A stretch of DNA of 64,000 nt from Clostridia bacterium (GCA_017547285.1 JAFYQB010000033.1:1678-65677), one strand, 5' to 3'. Positions 30,766-50,927 are shown, numbered from the stretch's first letter. The notes: generated from the sequence alone by a model not told the origin. Translations and numbers: made by a program.

Positions 30766-30786
30766 GAAGCAAATGGAGGTATGAAT

Positions 30787-32151: not shown

Positions 32152-32164
32152 GGAGGGACATGCT

Positions 32165-33013: not shown

Positions 33014-33029
33014 AGGAGGATGAATCTTT

Positions 33030-33680: not shown

Positions 33681-33707
33681 ATCAACAACTACAAGGAGGT
33701 GATACTC

Positions 33708-35204: not shown

Positions 35205-35247
35205 AACCCACCACACACCCTAACATAAATTGATGGAGGTATGTATT

Positions 35248-35541
35248 ATGTCTACTCTGCAGGCTCTGGGTATGGTTGAAACCAAAGGTCTTATCGGTTC
35301 TATCGAAGCTGCTGATGCTATGGTCAAGGCTGCGAACGTCAACCTGATCGGCAAGGTGCACGTTGGCGGCGGTCTGGTGACCGTGATGGTTCGCGGCGAC
35401 GTTGGCGCCGTGAAGGCCGCTACCGATGCCGGTGCTGCTGCTGCTTCCCGCGTTGGCGAGCTGGTTTCCGTGCACGTGATCCCGCGTCCCCACAACGAAG
35501 TGGAAATGATCCTGCCCACGCTGGCTACCACCGATAAGTAA
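35248..35541 (+). CDS. eutM: BMC-H shell protein EutM
   Basis: ATG 35248 lies 8 nt after [31 protein letters not shown]...GDVGAVKAA is the canonical BMC domain. Confidence 0.9.
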
Positions 35542-35578
35542 TCGGTAACTGAAAAGAGTATGACGAAGGGGTGGCAAA

Positions 35579-36340
35579 ATGAGTAAAGCGACGATTCTGA
35601 CGGATATTGAGCTGCGTGCGCACTGGTACCGCACCCGGCAAACCACCTATACGGTGGCTCCGGGTACCTGTATCACGCCCGCTGCGCAGGACTTTATCCG
35701 GGAACATCAGATTCAGCTGCATTTTGCCGCCCCTGTCTCATCAGGCATGACGGTCACGCCCATTCCCACGCAGGCAGGCCGCGCCAAGTACGTGGATTAC
35801 GTAACAGGCAAGGCGCTGGACGTGAAGCCGGAAAACATGACCCATCTGAGAGGCAATCTGCTGGTGAACAAGCGGCATCCGCGCATTGCGTTCCGCGGCA
35901 GGCTGGACTCCCTGATGGCCAAAGTGATCTGCGTACAGCTGGCCGCGGCGGAAGCCGGAAAGGAAAAGCTGTGCGAAGAGCTGGAAGAACTGCTGGGTTA
36001 TCTTCGCACCATTCTGGCCGCCGAGGTCAAGGATGAACCGCTTCAGCCCATGAATCTGCTGGGCATGGACAGCGAAGGCATCCGCCAGTGTTCCCACCAT
36101 GTGAAGGAACACATTGGAATCAATCACCCCATCCCCTCTTACCGGATGGGCAAACTGTGTGTGATGCTCAACGAGCTGCGCACGCAGGTAAGAGAAACCG
36201 AACTGAGCGCGGTGAATGCCCTCGGTCAGGAAGGGCCTGATATGCGTCTGGATATCATTGAAGGCCTGAACCGCTTCTCAAGCTGCGTATACATTCTGTT
36301 CTGCCGTACCGTGGCAGGAAAATATGAAGAGGAGAAATGA
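35579..36340 (+). CDS. eutT: ethanolamine-utilisation cobalamin adenosyltransferase (PduO/PF01923-like core with a ~90-aa N-terminal extension)
   Basis: 253 aa. KRHPRIAFRGRLDSLMAKVICVQ aligns with the RVEAYGTVDELNS region of PduO-type adenosyltransferases, from memory. Its position between eutM and pduL matches Firmicutes eut loci. Confidence 0.65.
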   Translation: MSKATILTDIELRAHWYRTRQTTYTVAPGTCITPAAQDFIREHQIQLHFAAPVSSGMTVTPIPTQAGRAKYVDYVTGKALDVKPENMTHLRGNLLVNKRHPRIAFRGRLDSLMAKVICVQLAAAEAGKEKLCEELEELLGYLRTILAAEVKDEPLQPMNLLGMDSEGIRQCSHHVKEHIGINHPIPSYRMGKLCVMLNELRTQVRETELSAVNALGQEGPDMRLDIIEGLNRFSSCVYILFCRTVAGKYEEEK

Positions 36341-36344
36341 TAGC

Positions 36345-37016
36345 ATGCATTACTACAGTGAAAAGGAAATCCGCGATATCATTGCTTCTGTTGTAGCGCA
36401 GCAGCTGGGTACCCCGTGCGCTCCGCAGGCCAAATCCTGCGAAAACAGCAAGCAGACCGTTCCCGTGGAAGTATCCGCCCGCCATGTGCACCTGACGCAG
36501 GAGGCGGTAGAAATTCTCTACGGCAAGGGCCACAAGCTGACCAAAAAGCGCGATCTCAGCCAGCCAGGCGAGTTTCTGGCCGAGGAACGCGTAAAGATCG
36601 TTACCAACAAAGGTGAATTTGCCAATGTAGCCGTTCTTGGCCCGGCCCGTCCTGCCGTGCAGGTGGAGCTTTCCATGACGGACTGCAAAACCCTTGGCAT
36701 CAAAGCGCCGGTCAATCTGTCCGGCGATCTGAACGGCGCGGCTGACGTCGTGCTCTTCAGCCCCACGGGCATGGTGAAGGCCGATGGTTCCGCCATCGTT
36801 GCCAAGGCCCATATCCACATGACCACCAAGGACGCCCAGACCTACGGCGTGAAGGATGGTCAGAAGGTGCGCGTTCATCTGAACAGCGCACGTCCCATTA
36901 CCATTGATGACGTCATCATCCGCGTCAAAGACAGCTTTGCGCTGGCTATGCACATCGATTTTGATGAAGCCAACGCTGCTGCTGTTGCCGGAAACATCAC
37001 CGGTACGCTGGAGTGA
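36345..37016 (+). CDS. pduL: phosphate acyltransferase PduL
   Basis: ORF 36324-37016. ATG 36345 lies 10 nt after AGGAG. The duplicated PduL blocks VEVSARHVHL and AKAHIHM are present. N-terminal helix is EKEIRDIIASVVAQQL. Confidence 0.85.
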   Translation: MHYYSEKEIRDIIASVVAQQLGTPCAPQAKSCENSKQTVPVEVSARHVHLTQEAVEILYGKGHKLTKKRDLSQPGEFLAEERVKIVTNKGEFANVAVLGPARPAVQVELSMTDCKTLGIKAPVNLSGDLNGAADVVLFSPTGMVKADGSAIVAKAHIHMTTKDAQTYGVKDGQKVRVHLNSARPITIDDVIIRVKDSFALAMHIDFDEANAAAVAGNITGTLE

Positions 37017-37028
37017 GGAGGAACCCCC

Positions 37029-37685
37029 ATGCATGAATCCATGGACGAACTCGTCCGCCTCGTTACCGAACGGGTGATGGCTGCCCTGAACACCGAAAAC
37101 AAGCTCACCGAAGCACAGAACGAAGGCAAAAAGAAGTGCCTTGTGCTCGGCGGGATGGAAGATATCCCCGAAACGCTCAAACAGGATATGATTCTGTTTG
37201 ACGTAACGGATTATGAAACCGTACAGAATATTCTGCGCTACAGCCGCGTCATCATTAGCAAACTTACCCTGCGCCAGCTGGCGGATATTGCCGCAGGCCG
37301 CCCGGGAGACTCCCTTTGCTGCGCCGTTTGTCAGGCGCTTTTGCAGGGCGTGGATGTGGTGATGCTGGAAACCGCCGCGCCGCACCGTGCGCATGCCGGC
37401 AAGGGCAGCACCGCTTTCTACCGCATGCTGGAAGGCTATATGAACAGCCTGCAGGTATTTGGAATCAAGCTGATCGTCAAGGAAAGCGCACTCAACTATG
37501 GCCCTGAAAAGAAACAGGGCGAACCCGTCCGCTGCGAGGTGAACGGTACCAAGCTGATCACCGAGGAAATGGCGGAACGCCTGGCCAAAAAGGCGCAGGA
37601 AATTGTGGTGCCCGCCTCCACGATCATCACCCCTGCCGCTATGGACGTGCTCAAAGAAGCCCGTATCACCGTTATCCGGAGGTAA
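37029..37685 (+). CDS. eut-locus protein of unknown function
   Basis: 218 aa, tightly packed between pduL and eutN, with GGAGGA upstream. N-terminal amphipathic helix is MDELVRLVTERVMAAL. The C-terminal ITPAA.D module is shared with the adenosyltransferase N-terminus. I recognise no family. Confidence 0.75.
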   Translation: MHESMDELVRLVTERVMAALNTENKLTEAQNEGKKKCLVLGGMEDIPETLKQDMILFDVTDYETVQNILRYSRVIISKLTLRQLADIAAGRPGDSLCCAVCQALLQGVDVVMLETAAPHRAHAGKGSTAFYRMLEGYMNSLQVFGIKLIVKESALNYGPEKKQGEPVRCEVNGTKLITEEMAERLAKKAQEIVVPASTIITPAAMDVLKEARITVIRR

Positions 37686-37688
37686 TCC

Positions 37689-37973
37689 ATGATTATTTGC
37701 AAAGTGGTGGGCCATGTATGGGCCACCAAAAAGGAAGAACGCCTGAACGGCCTCAAGCTGATGGTTGTGCAGGAGGATTCGCCCGATAAAAAGAAGCGGG
37801 ATATTTTTGTAGCTGCCGACACGGTTGGCGCGGGCATCGGCGAACAGGTGCTGGTGGTTAGCGGCAGCACGGCGCGCAAGGCGTTTGGCCGTGAAGATGT
37901 GCCTGCCGATATGGCGATCGTCGGCATCATCGATACGCTGGAAGTCAACCGTGAAAAACTGGATCTGAAATAA
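37689..37973 (+). CDS. eutN: BMC-P vertex protein EutN/CcmL
   Basis: 94 aa. MIICKVVGHVWATKK...DTVGAGIGEQVLVVSGSTAR is the EutN/CcmL fold signature. Confidence 0.9.
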   Translation: MIICKVVGHVWATKKEERLNGLKLMVVQEDSPDKKKRDIFVAADTVGAGIGEQVLVVSGSTARKAFGREDVPADMAIVGIIDTLEVNREKLDLK

Positions 37974-37988
37974 AAGGGAGTGCCAAAA

Positions 37989-39338
37989 ATGAGCATTACC
38001 GATCAAATTGCAGCCGCTGGCATTGTTGGCTGCGGCGGCGCGGGTTTCCCCACGCACGCCAAACTCAAAGGAACTTTTGAACACCTGATTATCAACGGCG
38101 CGGAGTGCGAACCGCTGCTCCGCACCGACCGCTATATCATGCTCAACAAGGCGGATGAGCTGGTGCGCGCCCTGTGCGCTATCACGAAGGAATTGAACGT
38201 TCCCAAGTGTACCATTGCGCTCAAAGCCGATTACAAAGACGAAATCGCTTCTCTGGAAAAGGCCATCGCCAAAGCTGGCGCTGATATCGCCATCCACAGG
38301 ATGGAAAGCTTTTATCCGGCCGGCGACGAACAAACCATTGTATACGAAGTAACGGGCCGTGTTGTACCGCCTGCAGGCATTCCCGGCATGGTGGGCTGCG
38401 TGGTGGATAATATCGCCACCATTCTGGCCGTGAACGATGCGCTGGACGGCAAACCCCTGACGCAGAAGTACCTGACCGTTACCGGTGAAGTGAAGCATCC
38501 CATGGTGCTGCGCGTACCCGTTGGCACCAGCTTTGCCCGCTGCATCGAACTGGCAGGCGGCGCTCTGCACAGCGATTACTTTGTGGTATCCGGCGGTCCC
38601 ATGATGGGCAAGCCGCTGACCAGGGAACAGGCTGCCAATGAAGTGGTGACCAAAACCACCTCCGGCATTCTGATTCTGCCTGCGGACGGTTATCACGCCA
38701 CGCAGAACGAGATCAGCGTTCGCCACATGCTCAACCGCGCCAAATCTGCCTGCATCCAGTGTTCCGCCTGTTCGCAGCTGTGCCCGCGCCACATGCTGGG
38801 TCACCCTATTGAGCCGCACCGGATCATGCGCAAAATGGCCATGGCCAACGAGATCGGCGAGGACCTGAACGATCCCGTCATCCGCAATGCAGCGCTGTGC
38901 TGCGAATGCGGCGTATGCGAGGCGTATGCCTGCCCCATGGGCCTGCAGCCCCGCAGGATCAACAGCCTGCTCAAAAAGCAGCTGGGCGCAGCCGGGATCC
39001 GCTATGCCCGTCCCGAAGGCGCGGAGTATGAAGCAGATCCCCAGCGTGATGCCCGCAAGGTGCCCAGCAAGCGTCTGGCTGCCCGTGTGGAGGTACTCCC
39101 CTATTACCACTACACCATTCGCGAACTGGCAGAGGATCAGCCTGCACAGGTACGCATTCCCCTGAGGATGCACATCGGCGCGCCTTCTGTGCCGGTGGTG
39201 CAGGCAGGCGATTCCGTGACCGCCGGTCAGCTGATCGCCAAATGCCCGGATGGTGCGCTGGGCGCTGCCATCCACGCCAGTATTTCCGGCAAGGTTGTTT
39301 CGGTCAACGATTCCATTGAAATCAGCAGCGCGCTGTAA
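37989..39338 (+). CDS. pduS: PduS-like Fe-S flavoprotein (RnfC/NuoF-like, cobalamin reductase family)
   Basis: ATG 37989 lies 8 nt after AAGGGAG. GCGGAGFPTHAKLK is the NADH/FMN block. CIQCSACSQLCP and CCECGVCEAYACP are two 4Fe-4S motifs. 449 aa. Confidence 0.8.
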   Translation: MSITDQIAAAGIVGCGGAGFPTHAKLKGTFEHLIINGAECEPLLRTDRYIMLNKADELVRALCAITKELNVPKCTIALKADYKDEIASLEKAIAKAGADIAIHRMESFYPAGDEQTIVYEVTGRVVPPAGIPGMVGCVVDNIATILAVNDALDGKPLTQKYLTVTGEVKHPMVLRVPVGTSFARCIELAGGALHSDYFVVSGGPMMGKPLTREQAANEVVTKTTSGILILPADGYHATQNEISVRHMLNRAKSACIQCSACSQLCPRHMLGHPIEPHRIMRKMAMANEIGEDLNDPVIRNAALCCECGVCEAYACPMGLQPRRINSLLKKQLGAAGIRYARPEGAEYEADPQRDARKVPSKRLAARVEVLPYYHYTIRELAEDQPAQVRIPLRMHIGAPSVPVVQAGDSVTAGQLIAKCPDGALGAAIHASISGKVVSVNDSIEISSAL

Positions 39339-39350
39339 CAGGAGGACGCT

Positions 39351-39896
39351 ATGGATTCGATTGGTTTTCTGGAGTTCAACAGCATCGCCAAGGGCATTGA
39401 AGCCGCCGATGCTGTGATCAAGGCTGCGGACGTGCATCTGGCGTTTGCCAAGGCCAGCTGTCCCGGCAAATATTATCTGCTGTTCCACGGCGAAGTCGCC
39501 GCTGTGCAGGCCTCTCTGGACGCCGGCGCAGCCATCGGCGGCAAGCACGTGGTGGATCACTGTGTGATCCCGCGCGTGCATCCGCAGGTCATCAAGGCCA
39601 TCGGCATGGCCAACATGCCCGAGTACAACGGCGCCATCGGCGTGATGGAATTCTACAGCGTGACTGCTTCCATCTACGGCGCGGATGCTGCCGTCAAGGC
39701 AGCGGATGTTTCGCTGATCGACCTGCGCCTTGGCACGGGCATCGGCGGCAAGTCCTTTGTGACCCTGACCGGTGATGTGGCCGCTGTAACGGAATCCATC
39801 CGCTGCGGCACCACCACGCCCAACGCTGAAGGCATGCTGGTATCCAGCGTGGTCATCCCCAACCCGGCTCCCGAACTCTTCCAGAGTCTGCTGTAA
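39351..39896 (+). CDS. pduT: tandem-BMC shell protein PduT-like
   Basis: 181 aa with two BMC domains (SIGFLEFNSIAKGIEAADAV and AIGVMEFYSVTASIYGADAA). The Cys in KASCPGKY sits where PduT ligates its pore 4Fe-4S cluster. Confidence 0.8.
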   Translation: MDSIGFLEFNSIAKGIEAADAVIKAADVHLAFAKASCPGKYYLLFHGEVAAVQASLDAGAAIGGKHVVDHCVIPRVHPQVIKAIGMANMPEYNGAIGVMEFYSVTASIYGADAAVKAADVSLIDLRLGTGIGGKSFVTLTGDVAAVTESIRCGTTTPNAEGMLVSSVVIPNPAPELFQSLL

Positions 39897-39911
39897 CAGA
39901 GGAGGAACAAA

Positions 39912-40280
39912 ATGGCAGTTTACGAAAACTCTCCTTTTGAGAAGCAGCGCGTTATTCAGGAATTCGTACCCGGCAAACAGGTGACCATGGCGCATCTGAT
40001 CGCCAATCCCATGCCGGGCCTGTACAAGAAGCTTGGCGTGATCGGCAATCCTTCCGGCGCGCTGGGCATTCTGACCATCACCCCCAGCGAAGCGGCCATT
40101 ATCGGCGCGGACGTTGCCTCCAAGGCGGCAAACGTGGAGGTTGTATTTGTGGACCGCTTTAACGGCTCTCTGGTGATCAGCGGCGATGTTGCCAGCACCG
40201 AGGCAGCCGTGCGTGATGTACTGGACGTGCTGCAGAACATTCTGGGCTTTACCATTGCAACGGAAATTACAAGAACATGA
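39912..40280 (+). CDS. eutS: circularly permuted BMC shell protein EutS/PduU
   Basis: 122 aa. [21 protein letters not shown] matches E. coli Eut[22 protein letters not shown]. Confidence 0.85.
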
Positions 40281-40705
40281 AAAAGATTATGCTGATCGGG
40301 CACATTGCCTGCGGAAAAACCACCCTGTGCCAGCGGCTGAACGGCCTGAAGCAGGAATACAAAAAGACCCAGACCATTGAGGTCATCAACCATACCATCG
40401 ATACACCGGGCGAATACCTGGAGCACCGCGCGCTTCTGCGCAGCCTGACCGTGACCTCTGTCGATGTGGATGTAGCGCTGTTTTTGCAGGATGCGACCTC
40501 TGAACGCTTTCTCTTCTCCCCCGGCCAGTCGATGGCATTCCCCATCCCGGTCATCGGCGTGGTAACCAAAACCGACATCGCCACTCCCGAGCAGACTGCG
40601 CAGGCCGTGGAGCTGCTGGAACTGGCAGGCGCGGAGCGTATTTTCTGCGTCAGTTCCATCAACGGCGATGGCATGGACGAACTGATCCAGTATCTGAGTG
40701 AATAA
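40277..40705 (+). CDS. eutP: EutP/PduV family GTPase
   Basis: 142 aa. P-loop is [12 protein letters not shown] and DTPGEY is the switch. The start overlaps the eutS stop (ATGA). Confidence 0.85.
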
Positions 40706-40719
40706 GGACGGAACCACAC

Positions 40720-41157
40720 ATGCAGGAATTCAGCAAAGAAACCATCGAGGCCATTGTACGTCAGGTTCTTGGAAAACTGCTGATCGAAAACGATGATTGC
40801 CCCGTTAAAAAGGTTGCCGTTCCGTCTCTGACCGTAACGGAAGAACACCGGATGGACACCGGCAATCCCGCCGACCGTGTATGGACGCGCGATCTGTTCA
40901 CGCTGGAACAGTCCCCGCGCCTTGGCTGCGGCCTGATGGTGATGGAGCACACCACCTTCCCCTGGACGCTCAACTATGATGAAATCGACTACGTAGTGGA
41001 AGGCCAGCTGAGCATCCTGATCAATGGAAAGCGTGTTACCGCCGGCCCCGGCGAGATCATCCTGATCCCCAAGGGCTCCTCCATTCAGTTTTCCGTGGAG
41101 GACAAAGCGCGTTTCCTCTATTTTGTTTATCCCGCCAACTGGCAGGAGCAGGCCTGA
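40720..41157 (+). CDS. eutQ: cupin protein EutQ
   Basis: 145 aa. C-terminal cupin is YDEIDYVVEGQLSILINGKRVTAGPGEIILIPKGSSIQF. N-terminal helix is ETIEAIVRQVLGKLL. Confidence 0.8.
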   Translation: MQEFSKETIEAIVRQVLGKLLIENDDCPVKKVAVPSLTVTEEHRMDTGNPADRVWTRDLFTLEQSPRLGCGLMVMEHTTFPWTLNYDEIDYVVEGQLSILINGKRVTAGPGEIILIPKGSSIQFSVEDKARFLYFVYPANWQEQA

Positions 41158-41162
41158 TTTTC

Positions 41163-41188
41163 AGCCGTCAGCTACGCTGGCGGCTTTT
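41163..41188 (+). terminator. rho-independent terminator of the eut operon
   Basis: agccgtcagc/gctggcggct 10-bp stem, 3-nt loop, TTTT. It lies 6 nt after the eutQ stop. Confidence 0.6.
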
Positions 41189-41316: not shown

Positions 41317-41393
41317 GCGCCCGTAGCTCAGCTGGATAGAGTGTCAGACTCCGACTCTGAAGGTCGTGCGTTCGAATCGCATCGGGCGTACCA
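41317..41393 (+). tRNA. tRNA-Arg (anticodon CCG), CCA encoded
   Basis: Hand-folded cloverleaf. Acceptor stem is gcgcccg/cgggcgt, D arm is gctc-agctggata-gagt, and the anticodon stem tcaga/tctga has the loop ctCCGac. T arm is gtgcg-ttcgaat-cgcat, with discriminator a and CCA. Confidence 0.92.
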
Positions 41394-41643: not shown

Positions 41644-42405
41644 TTACTCCAAGCGCATTGCTTCAGTGGGTGTCTGGCCAGTCAGCCGATGAAACTCATA
41701 GCTGAAATAGCTCAGACTCTGAAATCCGCAGCGCGCAGCGACTTCGCTTACCGAATAATAGCCGGTTGACAACAGCAGCCGGGCGTTCTCGATGCGGATT
41801 TTTTTGAGATAGGCACTCGGAGAGGTGCCGAACCATTCCCGGAACTCCCGGCGGAAGTATGTTTCGCTTACGCCTGCCTGCTGCGCCAGCTGGTCAACAG
41901 AAAGCGCTGAATCGCCAAAACTGCGGTCAATTTGTTTGCGCGCTGCGTGCATGCGAAGCGGAATGCTGTCGCGTTCCACGTGCAGCTCTTCGTGCTGGAT
42001 CAAGGCAAGAATGTGGTAAAGGATAGACAGACAAGTATAGTCCTGCTCACGGCCTACTTTGTAGCGCTCCAGCAGAGCCTTAAAATGACTGAGTATCGCT
42101 TCACTGTGCTCCGGAACAAGCACTTGCGGAGGCTGCTTTTCTGATCCGCCTGTGGTGGTAAAATGGATCACGATGATTTCGCTGGGTTCAAGAACCTCGG
42201 TTTCATAGCTGGTTCCCTGCGGAGTGAAGGTAAGGCAGCCCGCTTCCGAGATCAGATTTTGACCAGCGCAGGCAATGCTGACTTTTCCGCTCAGTCTTAG
42301 GGAAAGGGCGTGGTGAGGGCGCCCGGCAACCCAAACGGGTTCCGATTTCTGAAAACGAGCAGAAAGCACCTGCAGACCCGTCACCACTTCACCTATACAT
42401 AACAT
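41644..42405 (-). CDS. AraC-family transcriptional regulator (start uncertain)
   Basis: ORF 41644-42465. ATG 42405 (GAAGAGG RBS) is preferred because ATG 42438 overlaps the best -10 element. The C-terminal HTH signature is VDQLAQQAGVSETYFRREF...GFQSLSYFSYEF. Confidence 0.8.
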   Translation of the reverse strand: MLCIGEVVTGLQVLSARFQKSEPVWVAGRPHHALSLRLSGKVSIACAGQNLISEAGCLTFTPQGTSYETEVLEPSEIIVIHFTTTGGSEKQPPQVLVPEHSEAILSHFKALLERYKVGREQDYTCLSILYHILALIQHEELHVERDSIPLRMHAARKQIDRSFGDSALSVDQLAQQAGVSETYFRREFREWFGTSPSAYLKKIRIENARLLLSTGYYSVSEVAARCGFQSLSYFSYEFHRLTGQTPTEAMRLE

Positions 42406-42436
42406 AAGGATCGCCTCTTCAATGCTTTCTTCCGGC

Positions 42437-42465
42437 ATTATATCACTTCTCTGAATACCTATCAA
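42437..42465 (-). promoter_or_regulatory. candidate promoter of the AraC gene
   Basis: On the minus strand: TTGATA (42460-42465), 17-nt spacer, TATAAT (42437-42442). Confidence 0.45.
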
Positions 42466-42568
42466 GTTTCGAATTCTGAAAATACTTTCGGTATCTGTGA
42501 TTGATTTTTATAGCTGGATGCGCGATAATATAGATAAGGATATCCTATCACAAAGGAGGAAAAATATC

Positions 42569-43474
42569 ATGAATGATCTCAAGCAGCGTATTGAAGAAGC
42601 TGTTCGCAAGGAAAGTATTGACCTGATCGGTTTTGCCCCCAAGTCCCGTTTTGAAGGTTTGGATGCCCGCCTGAATCCTTTCACCATCTTCCCTGAAGGC
42701 AAGACGGTGATTATGCTGGGCAAGCGCATCTGCCGCGGCTCCCTGCGCGGTATTGAAGAAGGCACCAACTTTGGCGATTACGGCCTGTTTGGTCGCAACT
42801 GGCTGGAAGACGAGTTCCTGTCCCTGGCCTGCTATGGTCTGACCAATGTGCTGGAAGATGAAGGCTGGGAAGCCGTGCCCGTATTCCCCAACCCCTCCGA
42901 ACTGGCTCCCACCGGCGTACCCGTTCGTGAAGGACAGCCCGCGCCCAACGTATTCCCCGACTTCACCTATGCCGCCGTGGCTTGCGGCCTGTGTGAAATC
43001 GGCCGCAGCGGCGTGCTGCTGTCCAAGCAGTTTGGTTCCCGTCAGCGTTTCCAGATGATCATCACCGACGCTGAAATCGAAGCCACTCCTCTGCTGGAAA
43101 GCAAGGTCTGCGACGGCTGCATGAAGTGTGCCGATGCCTGTCCTCTGGGCGCTATCAGCAAGGACGAAACCCGCACCATCACCATCTGCGGCAAGGAAAT
43201 GACCGTTGCTGTGGTGGATTATGACAAGTGCCGCATCTGCAAGAACGGCGCGCTGCCCAACCGTTTCACCAACAAAGCGCTGCCCGACCGCGTGCCTGCA
43301 CTGTGCAACCGCACCTGCATGTGCCACCTGGAGGAGAACAAGCTGGTGGGCAACCTGTTTGAAAACGCCTTCCGCCAGAACCCCATCTGGGCGCTGGATG
43401 CCTCCGGTGCCTGGACCGGCGACAGCCGCGTTCAGGATGTGCAGGGCGGCGTGTTCACCCGCGCACAGAAGTGA
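42569..43474 (+). CDS. 4Fe-4S protein of the epoxyqueuosine-reductase (QueG)/reductive-dehalogenase-like superfamily, paralogue A
   Basis: ORF trimmed to ATG 42569 (AAGGAGG RBS). The N-terminal domain reads LIGFAPKSRF...FPEGKTVIMLGKRICRGSLRGIEEGT. It continues FGSRQRFQMIITDAEIEATPLL and then CDGCMKCADACP plus further Cys motifs. No signal or Tat peptide. Confidence 0.7.
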   Translation: MNDLKQRIEEAVRKESIDLIGFAPKSRFEGLDARLNPFTIFPEGKTVIMLGKRICRGSLRGIEEGTNFGDYGLFGRNWLEDEFLSLACYGLTNVLEDEGWEAVPVFPNPSELAPTGVPVREGQPAPNVFPDFTYAAVACGLCEIGRSGVLLSKQFGSRQRFQMIITDAEIEATPLLESKVCDGCMKCADACPLGAISKDETRTITICGKEMTVAVVDYDKCRICKNGALPNRFTNKALPDRVPALCNRTCMCHLEENKLVGNLFENAFRQNPIWALDASGAWTGDSRVQDVQGGVFTRAQK

Positions 43475-43485
43475 GGTGACGCTAT

Positions 43486-44607
43486 ATGAAGCTGACCTCT
43501 CAAATGATCAAGGAGAAAGCCAAAGAGATAGGCCTTGATTGTATCGCCATCGGCAACATTGAGCGTTTTGAGAAAGCACCCTATCTGATGTCTCCCAAAA
43601 CCTATTTCCCCGGCGCAAAGTCTGTCATCGCCGTCGCCATGCGCATTCCCCGCGGCACCTACCGCGGCATTGAAGAAGGCACGCACTGGCACAACTATAC
43701 CTTCTACTCCTACAACAAGCTGAACACGCTGTTCCGCCCCAAGAAGTCCTATGAGCTGTGCTGCTTCATCGAGGATCACGGCTGGGAGGCTGTGGCGCAC
43801 TATCCCGCCGTTCCGGAAGGCAACGGCGTTCTGACCGAGCCTCTGGCCCCCGGCAAGCCTCCGCGTGATGTGGTATGCAGCGCACGTATTATCGCCGCCG
43901 GCACCGGTCTGGGCGAAGTGGGCTTCTCCAAGGTATTCCTGACCAAGAAGTTCGGCCCCCGTGTGCGTATCGGCCTCATCTTTACCGACTGTGAGCTGGA
44001 GCCCGATCCGATCCTGGATACCGGCGATATCTGCATCCACTGCGGCGCTTGCGCCCGCGAGTGCCCCGGCAACGCCATTCCGAGCGTCAAGAATCCCGAT
44101 GTGCGCATCGAGATCGACTACGGCGAAAAGAAGACCTGGTACGGCGACGTACAGATGGGCCGCTGCACGCTGAGCCACCACGGCTTCAACAATGAGTGCT
44201 CGCCCTTCCACAAGAAGGAATTCCCCAACATGGCCTTCGATGTGCGCAACACCGATATGACCGAGGAGGAAGCCTACATCCTGTGCTACTCCATGGCCTT
44301 TGCCAAGTGGGGCCGCAAGCCGGGCACCGACGCTGTGATGGAATATTATGATTACATCCTCAAGCATACCGGCTACTTTGCCATCTGCGGCGCTCGCGGC
44401 TGTATCCGTGCCTGTATGAATGCGCTGGAAAAGAGCAAGCGCATTGAGAACCTGTTCCACAATCCGTTCTACAAAAAGCCCAGCTGGCTGCTGCCCAACA
44501 AGCCGGAAACCATCTCCCGCGGTGTAAATCCCTATCGCGAGAAATATCTGGATGAAAAGTATCCCGGCATTCGTGAAAACGAATACGAAAAGAAAGCTGA
44601 CTGGTAA
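43486..44607 (+). CDS. 4Fe-4S protein of the QueG/reductive-dehalogenase-like superfamily, paralogue B
   Basis: 373 aa with a GAGGTG RBS. It aligns with paralogue A: IPRGTYRGIEEGT, EDHGWEAVA and FGPRVRIGLIFTDCELEPDPIL. It also carries CIHCGACARECP plus a second Cys cluster (CGARGCIRAC). Confidence 0.7.
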   Translation: MKLTSQMIKEKAKEIGLDCIAIGNIERFEKAPYLMSPKTYFPGAKSVIAVAMRIPRGTYRGIEEGTHWHNYTFYSYNKLNTLFRPKKSYELCCFIEDHGWEAVAHYPAVPEGNGVLTEPLAPGKPPRDVVCSARIIAAGTGLGEVGFSKVFLTKKFGPRVRIGLIFTDCELEPDPILDTGDICIHCGACARECPGNAIPSVKNPDVRIEIDYGEKKTWYGDVQMGRCTLSHHGFNNECSPFHKKEFPNMAFDVRNTDMTEEEAYILCYSMAFAKWGRKPGTDAVMEYYDYILKHTGYFAICGARGCIRACMNALEKSKRIENLFHNPFYKKPSWLLPNKPETISRGVNPYREKYLDEKYPGIRENEYEKKADW

Positions 44608-44636
44608 AACCGCAAGCTGGAATGGAGGATGACCCT

Positions 44637-46106
44637 ATGTATCTGCCGGTTTATCCCAAACCCACTTCCATGGTAGAAAGCGGCGGAAGCTATGTTCTTC
44701 CGCTGAAGGCTGAAATGCGTATTGCCGCCGGTGCAATGGATGAAACCCGCAAGGAGCTTGTGTGCGATATGTGGTATCGCTTTGCCTGCACCGCAGCCAA
44801 GCTGGTGATTGCAGAAGATGCCAGCCTGCCTGCCCATACGGCGGTCATTGGCTGCACTGAATGCGCCTGCAATGAGACGGATGATTACGCCATTACCGTT
44901 ACCGAAAGCGGCGTATGCGTGAAGGGCAAGGATGATCTCGGCCTGCTGCGTGGCTTTTATACGCTTTTGCAGCTGATTCGCCCCGTGTGCCTTGACGAAG
45001 GCAACGAGGATCTGCAGATCGACTGTGTTGTGGTGCACGACCGCCCCGCATTGGGCATGCGCGCCATTCACTTCTGCCTGTTCCCGGAAACTACGCTGGA
45101 TGTGCTGGAAAAGACCATCCGTCTGGCAGCGTTCATGAAGTATACGCACTTTGTGCTGGAGCCCTGGGGCGCATTAAAGCTGGACAGCTTCCCAGAGCTG
45201 GCATGGGCGGAGTGCTCCTACAGCAAGGATGAGATCAAGCCCTATCTGAAGCTGTGCAATGCCATGGGCATGGAAGTGATCCCCATGATCAACCATCTGG
45301 GTCACGCCACCCAGAGCCGCGGCGGCATGGGACGTCACACGGTGCTGGATCAGAATCCGCGCCTGTCTTTGATGTTTGAGCCGGACGGCTGGACCTGGTG
45401 CCTCTCCAATCCCATGGTGCATGAGAAGCTTCGCGCCGTGCGCGAAGAGCTGATCGACCTGTGCGGTGAGGGCAGCTATTTCCACCTTGGCTGCGACGAA
45501 TCCTACTCCTACGCCAGCTGCCCCAAGTGCCGCCAGCAGGATCATATTGCCATGCTGGCCGACTACCTGAACGGCCTGTGCGAAGAACTGGCTCAGCAGG
45601 GCCGCCGCGCCATCATCTGGCACGATCAGCTGCTTGAACGCGATGCATGGGAGCGTCCTCTGGTAGCCACTTCCCGTCCTGATCAGAAGACCCATCTGGC
45701 ATTGGAAAAGCTGGACCGCCGCCTGCTGATCGCCGACTGGCAGTACAACATTACTACGCCCGAACTGCCTACCAGCGAGTACTTCGTGAAGCAGAGGTTT
45801 GACGTGCTGATCTGCCCGTGGGACAAAGCGGGCAATGCGGTTGCCATGCATGCCGGCGCTGATAAACTGGGCCTTATGGGCGCCATGGATACCACCTGGC
45901 ACCATATGGATCCTATGCTGCGCGGCATGCTGGAATACGGCGGAAGCATCTGGAACGGCGCCAACTATGAGGCAAATCCCGGACAGGGCGTGCACTGTGC
46001 TGCACTTCTGCGCAAGATTATGCCCCACGCCCGCAGCTTTGCCAAGAGCGGCTTCCTTACCCACGAAATCGACCCGGATTACTGCCGCATCCTGTATGGC
46101 GGCTGA
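44637..46106 (+). CDS. divergent GH20-like protein (beta-N-acetylhexosaminidase fold suspected)
   Basis: ORF trimmed to ATG 44637 (GGAGG 7 nt upstream). VHDRPALGMRAIHFCL and FHLGCDES resemble the GH20 D.PRF.YRG and H.GGDE blocks. The HWH-type block is not evident. No signal peptide. Confidence 0.55.
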   Translation: MYLPVYPKPTSMVESGGSYVLPLKAEMRIAAGAMDETRKELVCDMWYRFACTAAKLVIAEDASLPAHTAVIGCTECACNETDDYAITVTESGVCVKGKDDLGLLRGFYTLLQLIRPVCLDEGNEDLQIDCVVVHDRPALGMRAIHFCLFPETTLDVLEKTIRLAAFMKYTHFVLEPWGALKLDSFPELAWAECSYSKDEIKPYLKLCNAMGMEVIPMINHLGHATQSRGGMGRHTVLDQNPRLSLMFEPDGWTWCLSNPMVHEKLRAVREELIDLCGEGSYFHLGCDESYSYASCPKCRQQDHIAMLADYLNGLCEELAQQGRRAIIWHDQLLERDAWERPLVATSRPDQKTHLALEKLDRRLLIADWQYNITTPELPTSEYFVKQRFDVLICPWDKAGNAVAMHAGADKLGLMGAMDTTWHHMDPMLRGMLEYGGSIWNGANYEANPGQGVHCAALLRKIMPHARSFAKSGFLTHEIDPDYCRILYGG

Positions 46107-46114
46107 TCAATACC

Positions 46115-46156
46115 AACCAAAAAGAAGCGGAGCAAATGCTTCGCTTCTTTTTGGTT
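46115..46156. terminator. bidirectional terminator between the convergent GH20-like and serine-hydrolase genes
   Basis: aaccaaaaagaagcg/cgcttctttttggtt is a perfect 15-bp stem with A/T runs on both sides. Confidence 0.65.
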
Positions 46157-46163
46157 GATTGTT

Positions 46164-47213
46164 TTATCCTTTGCACCACGCCGATACCGCTGCATTGTGC
46201 GCATACCGGCGCACACGCCAGATGGAATCGGTATCGAATTGTTCTTTGCAGGTACGGTTCGTAAGCAGCGCCATGTAGAAACCCAGTTCCGGATCAGCCA
46301 TCACGCTGGTCCCGGTCCAGCCGCTGTGGCCGAATGCCATGGGCGAGCAGGTATCACATACGGTTTGACCGCGCTGGGCGGAACGATAGAAGCCCAGTCC
46401 GCGCTGCATATTGCTGAAGGGCGTCAGGTTCTGATTGGCCGCAGCCAGCGTGGGTGCGGATACGATTGGTTCGCCGCCGCGCAGCAGCATGCGGGCGAAT
46501 TTACCGCAGTCTTCGATGGTGGAGAACACGCCCGCGTTGCCCACCGGACGGCCCAGATAGCGCGCGTTGTAATCGTTCACAATGCCCTTCACCGGCTCGG
46601 TCAGGCTGGTCGCTGCGATGTTATCGCCCACGGGTGCGTAACCGGTGTTTTTCATGCCCAGAGGATCAAACACGCGCTCTTGGGCCAGCACATCCAGTGA
46701 CTTGCCGCCCAGCTTTTCCAGCAGTTCGCCCAGCACGATAAAGCCAAGGCAGGCGTAGGAAACCTGCGTTTCTGCCTCATAGGAGCCGTTGCCGTACAGC
46801 ACGTCCTCCGATTTGAGAATGGCCTCTGCAATGGTATCCTTGGGGAAACCCACAATGGATTTGCCGCCCGGCAGACCGCTGCAATGGCTCAGCAGCTGAC
46901 GAACCGTCATTTTGGCGGATTTTTCCGGCAAACTGTCCCAGAAAAGGCCCAGATGATCGGTGGGAGAAAGGATGCCTTCCTCGATCATGGTCAGAGCAAT
47001 CATCGTAACGGAAAAAATTTTGCTAACGGAAGCCATATCAAAAATGGTTTCTTCATTCACGGGCAGCAGCTCCGGCTTTACCTGCCGCATGCCCTCGGCA
47101 TAGCGCCAGAGAGGGCCGTGCACATCGCCGATTTCCACCACGGCGCCGGGAAAGATTTCCTGCTGGATGGCTCTGCTGATGACCTGCTGAACACGCTCAA
47201 AACGATTTATCAT
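46164..47213 (-). CDS. serine hydrolase (beta-lactamase/class C/PBP4*-like family)
   Basis: 349 aa. The S-x-x-K motif is in FDMASVSKIFSV. No signal peptide. Confidence 0.8.
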   Translation of the reverse strand: MINRFERVQQVISRAIQQEIFPGAVVEIGDVHGPLWRYAEGMRQVKPELLPVNEETIFDMASVSKIFSVTMIALTMIEEGILSPTDHLGLFWDSLPEKSAKMTVRQLLSHCSGLPGGKSIVGFPKDTIAEAILKSEDVLYGNGSYEAETQVSYACLGFIVLGELLEKLGGKSLDVLAQERVFDPLGMKNTGYAPVGDNIAATSLTEPVKGIVNDYNARYLGRPVGNAGVFSTIEDCGKFARMLLRGGEPIVSAPTLAAANQNLTPFSNMQRGLGFYRSAQRGQTVCDTCSPMAFGHSGWTGTSVMADPELGFYMALLTNRTCKEQFDTDSIWRVRRYAHNAAVSAWCKG

Positions 47214-47300
47214 AACAAACGCTCCTTTGCTAATGGTACAAATAAGGCAGGGCGTAAACCCTGCCTTGACGGCGGTGATCCGCCAGTATGTTGTTTTGAA

Positions 47301-48227
47301 TCAACCCTTCACAGAACCGATCATAACGCCCTTGATGAAGTAGCGCTGGATGAAGGGATATACGCACAGGATGGGCGCGGTGGCGACCACGATCAAGGCG
47401 TACTTGAGGATGTCGGCCAGGCCCTGCTTGGCAACCATGGCTTCAACGTCGACCATGTCGTCCAGAGAGATCTGGCTGGCCAGCAGGATCTCACGCAGGA
47501 TCAGCTGCAGGGGGTACTTGTCAACGTCATTGAGGTAGATCATGGCGTTGAAGTAGGCGTTCCAGTGGCCTACGGCGTAGTACAGGGTGATAACAGCGAT
47601 GATGGGCTTGGACAGCGGCAGCAGAATCTTGAAGAAGAATCCTGCGTCGCTGCAGCCGTCGATCTGGCTGGCTTCCAGCAGTTCTCCGGGAATGGAGGAG
47701 CTCATGTAGGTGCGCACCAGAATCATGTTGTACACGCTCAGAGCACCGGGGATCAGCATGACCCAGCGGGAGTTTACAAAGCCGATCTTGCTCATGAGGA
47801 TGTAGGTGGGAATCAGACCGCCGCCAAAGTACATGGTGAACAGGAACAGCAGGCTGAAGAAACGGCGCATGGGGAAATCGCGGCGTGCCAGCGGGTAGGC
47901 ACAGGTAAGGGTGATGGCAAGGTTGATAATCGTACCAACAACCGTGTAGAAGATGGTGTTGGAATAAGCAGAAATGATGTGCTTATGAGCAAACACGGTG
48001 CGGTAGCCTTCCAGCGTGGGTTCCACAGGCCACAGCAGCACACGGCCGGTACTTACGGCAGTGCCGCTGGAGAAGGAGGAGGATACCACGTAAATCAGCG
48101 GATAGAGAACAACAATGGTAAACAGGGTCAGGATGGTTCCAACAACCGCATACAGAATCTTATCTTCTGTGGGATCCTTGATGCGGCGCTTTTTGATTTC
48201 CTGCTTGCTCAGCTTGATGGCGCTCAT
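47301..48227 (-). CDS. carbohydrate ABC transporter permease (LplC-type)
   Basis: 308 aa. The EAA loop is EASQIDGCSDAGFFFKILLPL. Confidence 0.85.
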   Translation of the reverse strand: MSAIKLSKQEIKKRRIKDPTEDKILYAVVGTILTLFTIVVLYPLIYVVSSSFSSGTAVSTGRVLLWPVEPTLEGYRTVFAHKHIISAYSNTIFYTVVGTIINLAITLTCAYPLARRDFPMRRFFSLLFLFTMYFGGGLIPTYILMSKIGFVNSRWVMLIPGALSVYNMILVRTYMSSSIPGELLEASQIDGCSDAGFFFKILLPLSKPIIAVITLYYAVGHWNAYFNAMIYLNDVDKYPLQLILREILLASQISLDDMVDVEAMVAKQGLADILKYALIVVATAPILCVYPFIQRYFIKGVMIGSVKG

Positions 48228-48247
48228 GGTCTATGCTCCTCCTTTCT

Positions 48248-49192
48248 TTAGAATAGACCCATGCTGCCACGGGACAGCTTGTTGGACAGGGTGTTGAAAA
48301 TGACCAGCATGCAGCAGTTCACAGCAGAGTTGAACAGGCCAATGGCAGAAGCATAGGAGAACTGCGTGGTGCCGCGGCTCATACCGGTCTTGTAGACGTA
48401 GGTCGAAATGACCTCGGAAGCAATCAGGTTGGTGCTGTTCTGCATCAGGTAGGTCTTTTCGAAACCTACGTTCATGATGGAACCGGCGTTCATGATCAGC
48501 ATGATCGCAGCGGTGGGGATCAGAACAGGGAAGTCGATGTAGATGATGCGCTTCAGGCGGGAAGCGCCGTCGATCTCCGCTGCTTCATGCAGCTCGGGGT
48601 CAACGCTGGACAGGGCGGAAATATAGATGATGGTATTCCAGCCAAGGTTCTGCCAGATGCCGCTCCACACATACATGTGACGGAACGCGCCGGCATTGGT
48701 CAGAATATCCTGAGGATAACCCTCACCGCCAAACAATCGGTATACGGTGCCATACATACCCATAACCGGGTTGAACATTTGGGTGATCATACCAACCAGA
48801 ACTACCACGGAGATGAAGTGCGGCATGTAGGTGATGGTCTGCACCATCTTTTTGAACTTGGCATTGCGCACGGTGTTAATGCACAGCGCCATGATGATGG
48901 AAAGCGGGAAGTTCATGAACAGGCTGTAGAAGGAGATGATCAGCGTATTCGAGAGTACGCGGCCAAACTGATAGGAATTGAAGAACTTGGTAAAGTGTTT
49001 GAGGCCTACCCACGGGCTGTTCCAGATGCCAGCGCGGGGCTGATAGTTGCGGAAAGCGATCTGTACGCCAAACATGGGGTAGTAAGCAAAAATCAGAATG
49101 TAAACAACCGCAGGGACCAAAAAAAGAAACAGCTGCCAGCGCTTAGCACAGTTGCGCAGAAATTTCTTTGTCGGAGATACAGTGTTGGTCAT
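48248..49192 (-). CDS. carbohydrate ABC transporter permease (LplB-type)
   Basis: ORF 48248-49309 trimmed to ATG 49192. The EAA loop is EAAEIDGASRLKRIIYIDFPVL. Confidence 0.85.
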   Translation of the reverse strand: MTNTVSPTKKFLRNCAKRWQLFLFLVPAVVYILIFAYYPMFGVQIAFRNYQPRAGIWNSPWVGLKHFTKFFNSYQFGRVLSNTLIISFYSLFMNFPLSIIMALCINTVRNAKFKKMVQTITYMPHFISVVVLVGMITQMFNPVMGMYGTVYRLFGGEGYPQDILTNAGAFRHMYVWSGIWQNLGWNTIIYISALSSVDPELHEAAEIDGASRLKRIIYIDFPVLIPTAAIMLIMNAGSIMNVGFEKTYLMQNSTNLIASEVISTYVYKTGMSRGTTQFSYASAIGLFNSAVNCCMLVIFNTLSNKLSRGSMGLF

Positions 49193-49268
49193 GGAGCCAC
49201 CACCCCTATTACTTAATAGAAAGGGGCGGAGGAAAGAGGTCTTCCCTCCGCCCGAGGTTATGAAAGAA

Positions 49269-50927
49269 TTACTTGAACATACGGTCGTAGGCGCCCTGCA
49301 TGGTCTCAACGTAAACGTCCAGACCGATGGCGTTCAGTTCGGTCAGGTAGGCGTCCCAGTCAGTCTCAACGTTCTTGTTGCCAAGGATGAAGTTGGACAT
49401 GGCTTCGTTAACGTAGCTCTGCAGGCTGGTTTCGATATCAGCAACCAGATCGATTTCATCCTGAGTCTTGATCAGGCCGAAGGCCAGGTTTTCAGGATGC
49501 TTGGAGTGACGCAGCGGCACAGAGGAGTACCACAGGGTATCCATCTGGTAGCGGCGGTTGCCTTCGGGATAGGGCTCGCCAGCCAGACCGGCGAACAGTT
49601 TCGGAGGCAGCATGTTGAAGGAGTTGTCGTTCCAGATGATGGCGTTCTCGGTGGTCCAGGGGGTACGGCTGGTAGCGGGCTGACCATAGATGGCGGTGAA
49701 GCCTTCCAGGTACTTATGACGGATTTCACCTTCGGTGGTGTATTCCCAGTCAATGTTCTGCTCGCCGTAGCGCATGGTCAGAGACAGATCCTCACGGGCG
49801 ATGGCGTCCAGAACGCGGAAAGCCAGTTCAGGATTCTCGCAGTCAGCGGTGATGTAGGTCTTGCAGGTGGGCTTGGCCAGCTTGTAGGGAGACCACTGCA
49901 CGCCTTCGGGACCAACCATAGCGGGAACAGCAACGTACTCCTGTACGCGGTCAACGGAACCGTCAGAACCGAACAGGGGAGAGGGATGGCCAACGAAAGC
50001 GCCAACCAGAGTAGCCTGATCGTTGGGGGCAGACAGGATAGCCTTCAGCTCGTTCTGAGACTGAGAGAAGCTCAGGGGGCTCAGCAGGCCTTCAGCGTAC
50101 AGCTTGGCCAGGTAGCGCAGACCTTCGTGCCACTCTTCGGTAACGAAAGGAGCGGACAGAATGCCGTCGTTCACGTTCAGCTGCCAGCCGAAATCGCCGC
50201 TCCAAGCGTCATAGATGAAAGCGTTCATCAGCTGGGTGCGTACGTCGCCCATCCAACCGGCATGGCCGATCAGGGGGATTTCGTCGTTGACATCGCCGTT
50301 GCCGTTGGCGTCATTTTCCTTGAAAGCCTTCAGCACGTTGTACAGTTCTTCGGTGGTGGTGGGGATTTCCAGACCCAGGTTATCGCACCAGGTCTTGTTG
50401 ATCCACATACCCAGAGCGGAGTTGTCGCCGGGGTCGGAGTAGTAGGAAGGATAGCCGTAGATGTTGCCGTCGGCGGAAGTGGCATACTTCAGAACCAGTT
50501 CCTTTTCATCGGCAGCATAGGTATCCATGGCCAGATTCCAGTAGTAAGCGTCGTTCTCCAGCCAATCGTTCATGGGCAGGAAGTAACCGGAAGAGCCGTA
50601 ATCCAGCTTTTCGGTGTCGTTCAGGCTCAGAACCAGAATGTCGGGCAGCTTCTGGCCGCCGGCGACCATCAGGCTGAACTTCTGCTTGGCTTCGGAGCCG
50701 TCGGTGGGCAGGGTTTCGATGACCAGTTCAACACCGGTCACTTCCTTGATCAGCTTGGTCAGGTAGTTGTCGGTGTAGTCGGTGACCATCGCGTGCTTCT
50801 GAATCATCATGGTCAGCTGCACGGGTTCATCAACCAGGGGCAGGGTGCCGGGAGCTGCGATTTCCAGTGCGAAAGCATTGGAAGCCAGCATGATCAGCGC
50901 CAACAGGGTTACCAGGAACTTCTTCAT
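49269..50927 (-). CDS. ABC transporter extracellular solute-binding protein (LplA-type, large)
   Basis: 552 aa with an AAGGAGG RBS. Signal peptide MKKFLVTLLALIMLASNAFA has no lipobox Cys. Confidence 0.85.
   Translation of the reverse strand: MKKFLVTLLALIMLASNAFALEIAAPGTLPLVDEPVQLTMMIQKHAMVTDYTDNYLTKLIKEVTGVELVIETLPTDGSEAKQKFSLMVAGGQKLPDILVLSLNDTEKLDYGSSGYFLPMNDWLENDAYYWNLAMDTYAADEKELVLKYATSADGNIYGYPSYYSDPGDNSALGMWINKTWCDNLGLEIPTTTEELYNVLKAFKENDANGNGDVNDEIPLIGHAGWMGDVRTQLMNAFIYDAWSGDFGWQLNVNDGILSAPFVTEEWHEGLRYLAKLYAEGLLSPLSFSQSQNELKAILSAPNDQATLVGAFVGHPSPLFGSDGSVDRVQEYVAVPAMVGPEGVQWSPYKLAKPTCKTYITADCENPELAFRVLDAIAREDLSLTMRYGEQNIDWEYTTEGEIRHKYLEGFTAIYGQPATSRTPWTTENAIIWNDNSFNMLPPKLFAGLAGEPYPEGNRRYQMDTLWYSSVPLRHSKHPENLAFGLIKTQDEIDLVADIETSLQSYVNEAMSNFILGNKNVETDWDAYLTELNAIGLDVYVETMQGAYDRMFK

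Follow-up and report, generated by a model that had tools for sequence, protein, structure and literature searches.

Paralogous proteins of the class-III cobalamin reductase superfamily form, with a divergent regulator, a conserved gene cassette in gut Clostridia

To our knowledge, only two chemistries are known among class-III cobalamin enzymes, organohalide reduction and epoxyqueuosine reduction. The closest described systems are accordingly the reductive dehalogenases (RdhA), including PceA of the respiratory type (4uqu, 8q4h) and NpRdhA of the catabolic type (4ras, 6zxx), and the epoxyqueuosine reductase QueG (B. subtilis 5d08/5t8y, S. thermophilus 5d6s; TIGR00276). Here we describe two adjacent genes, A and B, in a 64,000-nucleotide (nt) stretch of DNA from Clostridia bacterium (GCA_017547285.1 JAFYQB010000033.1:1678-65677), referred to below as the window. 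Judged by sequence and predicted fold, their products are members of the class-III cobalamin reductase superfamily and neither QueG nor RdhA sensu stricto; they are ancient paralogues that constitute a distinct subfamily of their own. We consider it fairly probable that A and B act jointly in an inducible, corrinoid-dependent reductive cleavage or elimination on an imported small molecule. The elements of the locus, with positions counted from the first letter of the window and lengths in amino acids (aa), are the following.

41644..42465, minus strand: AraC/XylS-family regulator gene, divergent from A; the start chosen by gene callers is 42438 (264 aa)
42466..42568, no strand assigned: divergent intergenic control region between AraC and A, with promoter-like sites on both strands
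42569..43474, plus strand: gene A, the shorter paralogue, predicted cytoplasmic protein of the QueG/RdhA-superfamily type with two [4Fe-4S] clusters, 301 aa
43486..44607, plus strand: gene B, the longer paralogue of A, 373 aa
44637..46106, plus strand: gene C, cytoplasmic GH20 beta-N-acetylhexosaminidase-like protein, 489 aa by gene callers
46114..46157, no strand assigned: strong hairpin terminator with a 20-bp stem, found by a terminator scan, serving A-B-C and the convergent beta-lactamase-fold gene

A preliminary description of the locus, made from the DNA alone, called A and B clear paralogues and assigned them to the QueG/reductive-dehalogenase superfamily of class-III cobalamin, double 4Fe-4S enzymes. 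Both statements hold. BLASTP aligns A and B over 198 aa at 37% identity (E 4e-37), with a second, C-terminal segment at E 7e-7, and the matching peptide blocks cited at that time are all found in the translations (ICRGSLRGIEEGT/IPRGTYRGIEEGT, EDEGWEAVP/EDHGWEAVA, and FGSRQRFQMIITDAEIE/FGPRVRIGLIFTDCELE). The superfamily assignment is borne out by NCBIfam, by the match to PceA, by profile-profile alignment, and by the predicted fold. Pfam returned only weak Fer4 matches to the two proteins. Among NCBIfam models the reductive dehalogenase model TIGR02486 ranks first (A, 49.6 bits, E 5e-13; B, 54.0 bits, E 2e-14), with a match confined to profile positions 156-293 and below the cut-off of 160 bits in both cases; the QueG model TIGR00276 gives 26.9 bits (E 2e-6) for A and 35.5 bits (E 6e-9) for B, both failing its cut-off of 200. 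In a sequence search of the PDB, the only significant matches other than ferredoxins are PceA, NpRdhA, and QueG (B to PceA, E 6e-11), and they cover the stretch just before the first cluster motif together with the motif itself. When a profile of the A/B family was compared by hhalign with a QueG profile built from three sequences (E. coli, B. subtilis, and S. thermophilus), a match with a probability of 97.7% (E 1.5e-12, 174 columns) was obtained, which runs from the N-terminus and corrinoid domain through the first cluster motif and ends at residue 203 of B.

AlphaFold2 models of B (pLDDT 84, pTM 0.84) and A (pLDDT 86.9, pTM 0.88) were searched against the PDB with Foldseek. For each model no protein other than QueG, NpRdhA, or PceA is among the top 46 matches (E 2e-9 to 5e-6), with QueG ranking first for B, and the next ones are the B12 chaperones CblC and CblD. 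The models, Foldseek, and hhalign all point to a nitroreductase-like domain of the corrinoid type followed by a bacterial-ferredoxin domain. Hidden Markov model searches and Foldseek on AlphaFold models against QueG and RdhA, the check suggested in the preliminary description, therefore returned membership in the superfamily while the cut-offs of both families were failed. Read directly, the N-termini of A (MNDLKQRIEE...) and B (MKLTSQMIKE...) contain no twin-arginine motif and no hydrophobic signal segment, in agreement with the earlier view that both proteins lack a Tat or signal peptide and are cytoplasmic.

Each protein was also said to carry a CxxCxxCxxxCP cluster and a second group of cysteines, and both are present. 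The first cluster is invariant (C181, C184, C187, and C191 in A; C183, C186, C189, and C193 in B), and three further cysteines are invariant across both paralogues (C227, C306, and C310 in B). Together with these seven shared positions there is a subfamily-specific eighth, C224 in A (KCRIC) and probably C300 in B (CGARGC), so that each protein has eight candidate ligands for two [4Fe-4S] clusters. In a set of 94 sequences, reaching down to 39-44% identity, the residues conserved at 95% or more in both paralogues are R56, G57, R60, G61, E64, G65, E96, E101, G141, R159, T167, D168, and the seven cysteines. At least 95% of B sequences and 91% of A sequences have Y71; for R161 the shares are at least 95% (B) and 93% (A). 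The invariant loop R56-G-x-x-R60-G-[IV]-E-E64-G-T is the mark of the subfamily; in the AlphaFold2 model it is the least confident part of the corrinoid domain.

Several of these positions can be related, at the level of alignment, to residues of described function. Tyr105 of B. subtilis QueG is catalytic, and Arg141 of QueG lies under the corrin (PMC5175355, PMC4646009); the catalytic QueG tyrosine above the corrin (Tyr101/105) corresponds to Tyr246 of PceA (PMC4646009). The hhalign partner of Y71 is B. subtilis QueG Tyr105, and R161 of B (R160 of A) is aligned with PceA Arg305 in a phmmer alignment to 4uqu. By alignment, therefore, both positions of the PceA Tyr246/Arg305 proton-relay pair are occupied in A and B, Tyr246 being reached by way of the QueG tyrosine. 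R134, aligned with QueG Arg141, is conserved in B only, and A is without that arginine. The D-Y-H positions of QueG read N70-Y71-T72 in B and D70-Y71-G72 in A, and the region of the QueG Asp134 loop is taken up by an 18-residue insertion with no conserved equivalent; the counterpart of QueG Asp134 and PceA Asn272 is ambiguous, with B D128/A N127 or B E111 as by-eye options, none of which we assign.

The same data bear on whether A and B use a corrinoid at all. They might have kept the fold without the cofactor and function in redox reactions or electron transfer as Fe-S (possibly also flavin, nitroreductase-like) proteins, one of the two perhaps being non-catalytic: the fold is derived from the flavin nitroreductase fold, the sequences offer no verifiable corrinoid-specific residue, Pfam detects only Fer4 domains, and A is markedly less conserved than B and has no equivalent of QueG Arg141. 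We regard this as improbable, since the closest structures are exclusively corrinoid proteins (QueG and RdhA, then CblC/CblD) and no flavin nitroreductases, and since the GLGE...FGxRxR...TD motif of the cofactor core is conserved together with the position of the catalytic tyrosine.

Like QueG, A and B are cytoplasmic proteins of about 300-380 aa in which an N-terminal nitroreductase-like corrinoid domain precedes a ferredoxin domain for two [4Fe-4S] clusters. Unlike QueG, they have the RGxxRG[IV]EEGT loop and the 18-residue insertion and are without the DYH motif and the Asp134 loop, and they form two paralogous subunits under AraC, LacI, or IclR regulators, whereas QueG is one protein. Nothing corresponding to the C-terminal helical (HEAT-like) tRNA-binding domain of QueG was detected, as the C-terminal parts of A and B have no Pfam match; in A only about 100 residues follow the first cluster motif. 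One source does call a homologue 'epoxyqueuosine reductase', and QueG is the top structural match of B. Nevertheless, it is extremely improbable that A or B is an isofunctional epoxyqueuosine reductase engaged in tRNA modification, given TIGR00276 scores of 27-35 bits, replacement of D-Y-H by N-Y-T in B and D-Y-G in A, hhalign homology that stops ahead of the tRNA-binding helical domain, and a gene pair under an inducible regulator, which is ill-suited to a housekeeping tRNA enzyme.

With RdhA, PceA, and NpRdhA the two proteins share the core GLGE..G....T..FGPR.R....TD...PD-CxxCxxCxxxCP, and the way in which A/B paralogues are multiplied, each under a regulator of its own, is reminiscent of rdh clusters. 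They are shorter, however (301 and 373 aa versus 450-700 aa), and they have neither the Tat signal and RdhB membrane anchor of the respiratory type nor the fused reductase module of the catabolic type, with a regulator as the only conserved neighbour; in addition, they come from fermentative gut Clostridia and a sugar-type genomic context. If A and B were nonetheless cytoplasmic reductive dehalogenases, catabolic or detoxifying, acting on natural or dietary organohalides, this would suit the first rank of TIGR02486 for both, PceA as the best PDB sequence match, conservation at the positions of PceA Tyr246 and Arg305, and the loci with multiple paralogous cassettes under their own regulators (L020, L117, and L157). 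The scores of 50-54 bits against a cut-off of 160, a homology limited to the cofactor-binding core, the lack of a Tat signal, an rdhB-like anchor, or a fused NAD(P)H reductase module, and the fermentative hosts with their sugar-type gene contexts make dehalogenation quite improbable.

The organization of the genes was followed in a genome scan with one genome per species. It returned 203 loci, of which 80 were kept; they belong to uncultured Clostridia, Oscillospiraceae, Acutalibacteraceae, and Christensenellaceae from the gut of ruminants, poultry, and humans. In 79 of them B is immediately preceded by A, and the remaining locus is cut by a contig edge. In 65 of the 80, a divergent AraC homologue is encoded no more than 1.2 kb upstream of A (median spacing, 190 nt), which supports control of A and B by a regulator of the small-molecule type. 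Median identity to the window proteins is 82% for B, 67% for A, and 39% for AraC. Across metagenome-assembled genomes (MAGs) of different families, B is 78-86% identical, A 52-75%, and the neighbouring AraC 29-48%. Such a gradient speaks against a recent transfer of the cassette as a whole and points instead to a very strong constraint on B.

Clustering of open reading frames (ORFs) over the 80 loci revealed no further gene family in more than nine loci, the largest cluster being an antisense artefact of B. In a Pfam scan, 101 of the nearest flanking ORFs gave 131 families, the commonest of which, MatE, occurs in four ORFs, and a same-strand gene follows B within 150 nt in only 19 of the 80 loci, these genes being heterogeneous. 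A conserved partner of any kind in the gut clade, be it a transporter, an electron donor, or B12 genes, is rejected by these counts. Thus the conserved unit is the regulator with A and B, which occurs in hundreds of Clostridia of the gut, and the cassette is self-contained: a divergent regulator of the small-molecule type (AraC here) and a two-gene operon, placed in varied genomic contexts.

A URO-D-family gene (PF01208) adjoins the cassette AraC in organisms closely related to that of the window (L086:5137-6090, L087:2390-3343, and L088:1255-2208); two more cases occur among L106-L171, and the window itself has none. The PF01208 family also takes in MtaA/MtbA-type corrinoid methyltransferases.

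When metagenomes were scanned with the family profile, another 80 loci were obtained, of gut, digester, fermenter, and sediment origin. The A-then-B pair is retained in them down to 39-44% identity. The regulators among nearest neighbours are of the LacI type in eight cases, IclR in eight, AraC in four, and MarR in three, and CUT1-type ABC permeases are among the nearest neighbours in seven. The order A-B-permease-permease-solute-binding protein occurs in L114, L116, and L131, while L112 has a GH109 gene. Tandem arrays of A/B-like genes were also seen (L117:4276-9107, in the order A-B-A-A-B; likewise L120, L142, L157, L169, and L171), which by analogy with rdhA gene clusters suggests a substrate-diversified expansion of paralogues. 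A profile search run exhaustively over 1.84 billion representatives yielded 5312 matches at E<=1e-3, of which 248 (50%-identity clusters) reach E<=1e-30; the word-indexed search gave 2096 clusters at 90% identity for B and 1195 for A.

Many of the profile matches are proteins of about 750-800 aa with two full modules. As direct A-B fusions of the Rosetta stone kind they qualify only in part: they do hold two full modules, but the RGxxRGIEEGT loop is missing from them and they represent a sister subfamily. These tandem-module relatives (P0267, P0272, P0276, and a copy in L020) have the common superfamily core repeated within one chain, as two full modules with Fer4 motifs and a degenerate middle one; they differ from A and B in lacking the RGxxRG[IV]EEGT loop, are 26-30% identical to them, and are likewise uncharacterised. 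The L020 copy (L020:9278-11488, minus strand) encodes 737 aa with two full QueG/RdhA-like modules and a degenerate middle module and is 28-33% identical to P0267, P0272, P0276, and P0283; it has a divergent AraC gene of its own (L020:11705-12388, plus strand) and lies immediately beside an ordinary AraC-A-B cassette. Joint action of two or more modules is thereby a recurrent theme, which supports an A:B complex without proving it.

In the window, B is followed after 29 nt by gene C, which had been described as GH20-like from two peptide blocks, DRPALGMRAIHF and HLGCDE. Both blocks are found in its translation, and both GH20 domains score above the gathering thresholds (PF00728, 40.1 bits against 22.3; PF02838, 36.3 bits against 26.1). 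The best PDB match is 8bal (E 3e-17), in which the catalytic Asp-Glu motif FHVGLDE is aligned with HLGCDE. Gene C thus resembles GH20 beta-N-acetylhexosaminidases (8bal, 9fyl) in its GH20b and catalytic domains and in keeping the H-x-G-x-D-E pair; it is unlike them in being divergent, without an NCBIfam match, cytoplasmic, and placed in an unusual operon with Fe-S reductases.

The A-B-GH20 arrangement itself is not a conserved triad: tblastn and ORF clustering over the 80 genome loci and Pfam on the flanks lead us to reject it. A homologue of gene C is adjacent to the cassette in only two of them (L038 and L050, 34-36% identity), where it lies between AraC and A, and the window order of A-B-GH20, convergent beta-lactamase-fold gene, and ABC transporter appears only in relatives whose B is at least 97% identical. 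The preliminary description had taken the three genes as a unit, proposed measuring its conservation, and staked its reading on the neighbourhood recurring in some other genome. The neighbours do recur, in a different gene order, so that this much survives narrowly; as a core unit the triad does not stand. Gene C is a lineage-specific addition to the cassette.

Glycosidases that cleave N-acetylhexosamine (HexNAc) are nevertheless found close to the cassette. The tblastn matches to GH20 (gene C), GH89-like (from L058), and GH109 (from L112) queries were tallied by their distance from the cassette in the full set of 160 loci. The DNA within 3 kb, 646 kb in total, contains 11 matches (three GH20, one of them on a duplicate contig, seven GH89-like, and one GH109), against two weak GH109-like matches of 21-25% identity in the 609 kb lying farther away. 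Three of the GH89-like genes lie 14-94 nt after B on the same strand (L058, L101, and L127), and the four others lie beyond AraC; a search for signal peptides in these cassette-adjacent glycosidases gave none. The GH89-like genes and the two GH20 arrangements amount to at least four independent juxtapositions. The positional link with HexNAc-cleaving glycosidases is real, but rare. The connection to amino-sugar glycosides proposed earlier is thus upheld by the concentration of these enzymes near the cassette and by LacI and CUT1 neighbours, and restricted by the small share of loci, about 7%, in which it is seen; catabolism of amino-sugar glycosides is suggested as a reasonable lead, facultative and not part of the core.

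A stronger version of this link would make A, B, and the GH20 protein a dedicated three-enzyme pathway, in which a HexNAc glycoside is hydrolysed and its sugar or aglycone reductively modified by the B12 enzymes. The three genes are co-transcribed here with the 29-nt gap and a terminator only after C, the triad is retained in the closest relatives, and GH20 genes appear again in L038 and L050, though in another order; GH89-like genes stand straight after B in three loci, HexNAc-cleaving enzymes cluster within 3 kb, and LacI regulators and ABC sugar permeases accompany distant loci. We find such a pathway unlikely, as about 90% of loci have no glycosidase beside the cassette and the genes that closely follow B are few and heterogeneous.

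On the other side of gene C, and convergent to A-B-C, lies a minus-strand unit at 46164-50927. It encodes two CUT1 ABC permeases, a solute-binding protein of 552 aa for which Pfam gave no match, and a serine hydrolase of the beta-lactamase fold (PF00144, E 2e-44), whose nearest NCBIfam models are PBP4B and AmpH. The unit also adjoins the triad in the closest relatives (L081 and L085). Together with the GH20 gene it could form a locus for the uptake of HexNAc-oligosaccharides or muropeptides.

Returning to joint corrinoid-dependent reduction by A and B, the function that we favour, we can outline how it might proceed. The two proteins would act together, probably as a heterodimer, which is suggested by their constant adjacency in the order A then B and by the relatives of about 750-800 aa with two full modules. 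A low-potential donor would supply electrons, which the two clusters would relay to a base-off corrinoid in each of A and B; Co(I) would then attack the carbon of a C-O or C-X bond, and a reductive cleavage or elimination with transfer of two electrons would result. Proton donation may fall to Tyr71 and to the acidic EE loop, as the analogy with QueG and RdhA suggests. B would be the likelier catalytic subunit, being more conserved and keeping the QueG-like Arg134 under the corrin, and A a second catalytic or an electron-transfer subunit. The substrate would be an imported small molecule, most likely one derived from carbohydrate. The addition of a GH20 gene to the operon in the window suggests that it is released from, or is itself, a HexNAc glycoside, with the link being facultative across the family; alpha- or beta-GlcNAc-capped glycans or glycosides, reached through the GH20 or GH89 partners, are one example of a source. 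In its most specific form, the proposal would be that A and B constitute a heteromeric corrinoid reductase whose reaction on a carbohydrate-derived substrate, an inducible reductive cleavage of a C-O bond or an elimination, is of a type new to class-III B12 enzymes; this we put forward only tentatively.

The epoxide-to-alkene conversion performed by QueG is formally identical to that in anaerobic trichothecene de-epoxidation. By that analogy, and more speculatively, the A/B family may reduce dietary epoxides. Anaerobic trichothecene de-epoxidation by rumen and chicken-gut bacteria is listed among known activities (PMC12466796), and a full-text literature search found no paper tying it to a QueG-type enzyme.

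A number of observations weigh against the proposed function. The Foldseek TM-scores of the A and B models are modest, about 0.4-0.5, because the C-terminal parts differ, and the second cluster motif departs from the canonical spacing. Corrinoid contacts in the class-III superfamily are made mostly by the backbone and so cannot be scored from sequence; corrinoid binding and B12 dependence of A and B are what we infer from fold and sequence. The heterodimer is deduced from gene order and from fused relatives of a sister subfamily that lacks the RGxxRGIEEGT loop. The unusual conservation of B, with its median of 82%, could point to a macromolecular or housekeeping substrate. Neither an electron donor gene nor a transporter is consistently linked to the cassette in the gut clade, and the adjacency of HexNAc-cleaving glycosidases, confined to so few loci, reflects events that are not phylogenetically independent.

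As to the locus itself, the gene coordinates, the divergent upstream AraC gene, and the GH20-like gene 29 nt after B were given correctly in the preliminary description, as the ORF map shows. The ORF of A is open from 42497, and the ATG at 42569 is the start in gene callers and homologues; gene C could start at 44622 or 44637, of which gene callers choose the latter. The product of B contains a helical insertion of about 70 aa (residues 233-300 or so) that is absent from A. The AraC protein has a C-terminal double helix-turn-helix (HTH_18/HTH_AraC; PF12833, E 5e-23, 81.7 bits; PF00165, E 1e-21, 76.7 bits), and its N-terminal AraC-binding (cupin) domain is weak. The promoter-like sites between AraC and A, at 42501-42529 on the plus strand and 42553-42525 on the minus strand, are consensus matches only. 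The terminator scan found no terminator-like site between B and C, which, together with the 20-bp-stem terminator after C, indicates that A-B-C is one transcription unit here. In a matching 'Clostridia bacterium' MAG, A, B, and C are annotated as '4Fe-4S binding protein', 'hypothetical protein', and 'family 20 glycosylhydrolase', respectively. Long antisense ORFs of up to 1246 aa (36255-39995, 43432-44460, and 42548-43327 on the minus strand, and 46884-48251 on the plus strand) were rejected as genes: their low-complexity, Gly/Ala/His-rich translations are artefacts of a coding strand of about 55-60% GC and lie opposite well-supported genes.

Immediately upstream of the cassette, at 29254-41157 on the plus strand, lies an operon for an ethanolamine-utilisation (eut) microcompartment. 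The following parts of it, and a tRNA gene between the operon and the cassette, were identified.

29254-30765, plus strand: EutA
30781-32151, plus strand: EutB
32165-33013, plus strand: EutC
33699-35204, plus strand: aldehyde dehydrogenase
35579-36340, plus strand: cobalamin adenosyltransferase
37980-39338, plus strand: PduS/RnfC-like flavo-Fe-S protein
39351-39896, plus strand: tandem-BMC shell protein
41317-41390, plus strand: tRNA gene (Rfam RF00005, 63.5 bits), between the eut terminator and the AraC gene

EutS-, EutP-, and EutQ-like ORFs, recognized by eye, continue to 41157. The eut operon depends on adenosylcobalamin and includes an adenosyltransferase, and thus the organism uses cobalamin. 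A functional link between the cassette and the eut operon was rejected, as a terminator (41163-41185) and the tRNA gene separate the two and eut genes are not adjacent in other loci. An Rfam scan of the window at gathering thresholds found no cobalamin riboswitch or other known RNA besides the tRNA.

The A/B family forms a third, large, and tightly conserved branch of the class-III enzymes, whose members are annotated only as 'hypothetical' or '4Fe-4S binding protein' and for which a full-text literature search found no paper. The branch is abundant in Clostridia of the ruminant, poultry, and human gut and in anaerobic digesters, in the form of a two-paralogue pair under an inducible regulator. 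With just a regulator and two genes, the cassette is compact, self-contained, and therefore suited to direct testing. Assignment of its substrate would probably reveal a new B12-dependent reaction of the gut and, with it, a new reason for cobamide demand. If the carbohydrate reading is true, it would add a reductive, B12-dependent step to the catabolism of glycans in the gut.

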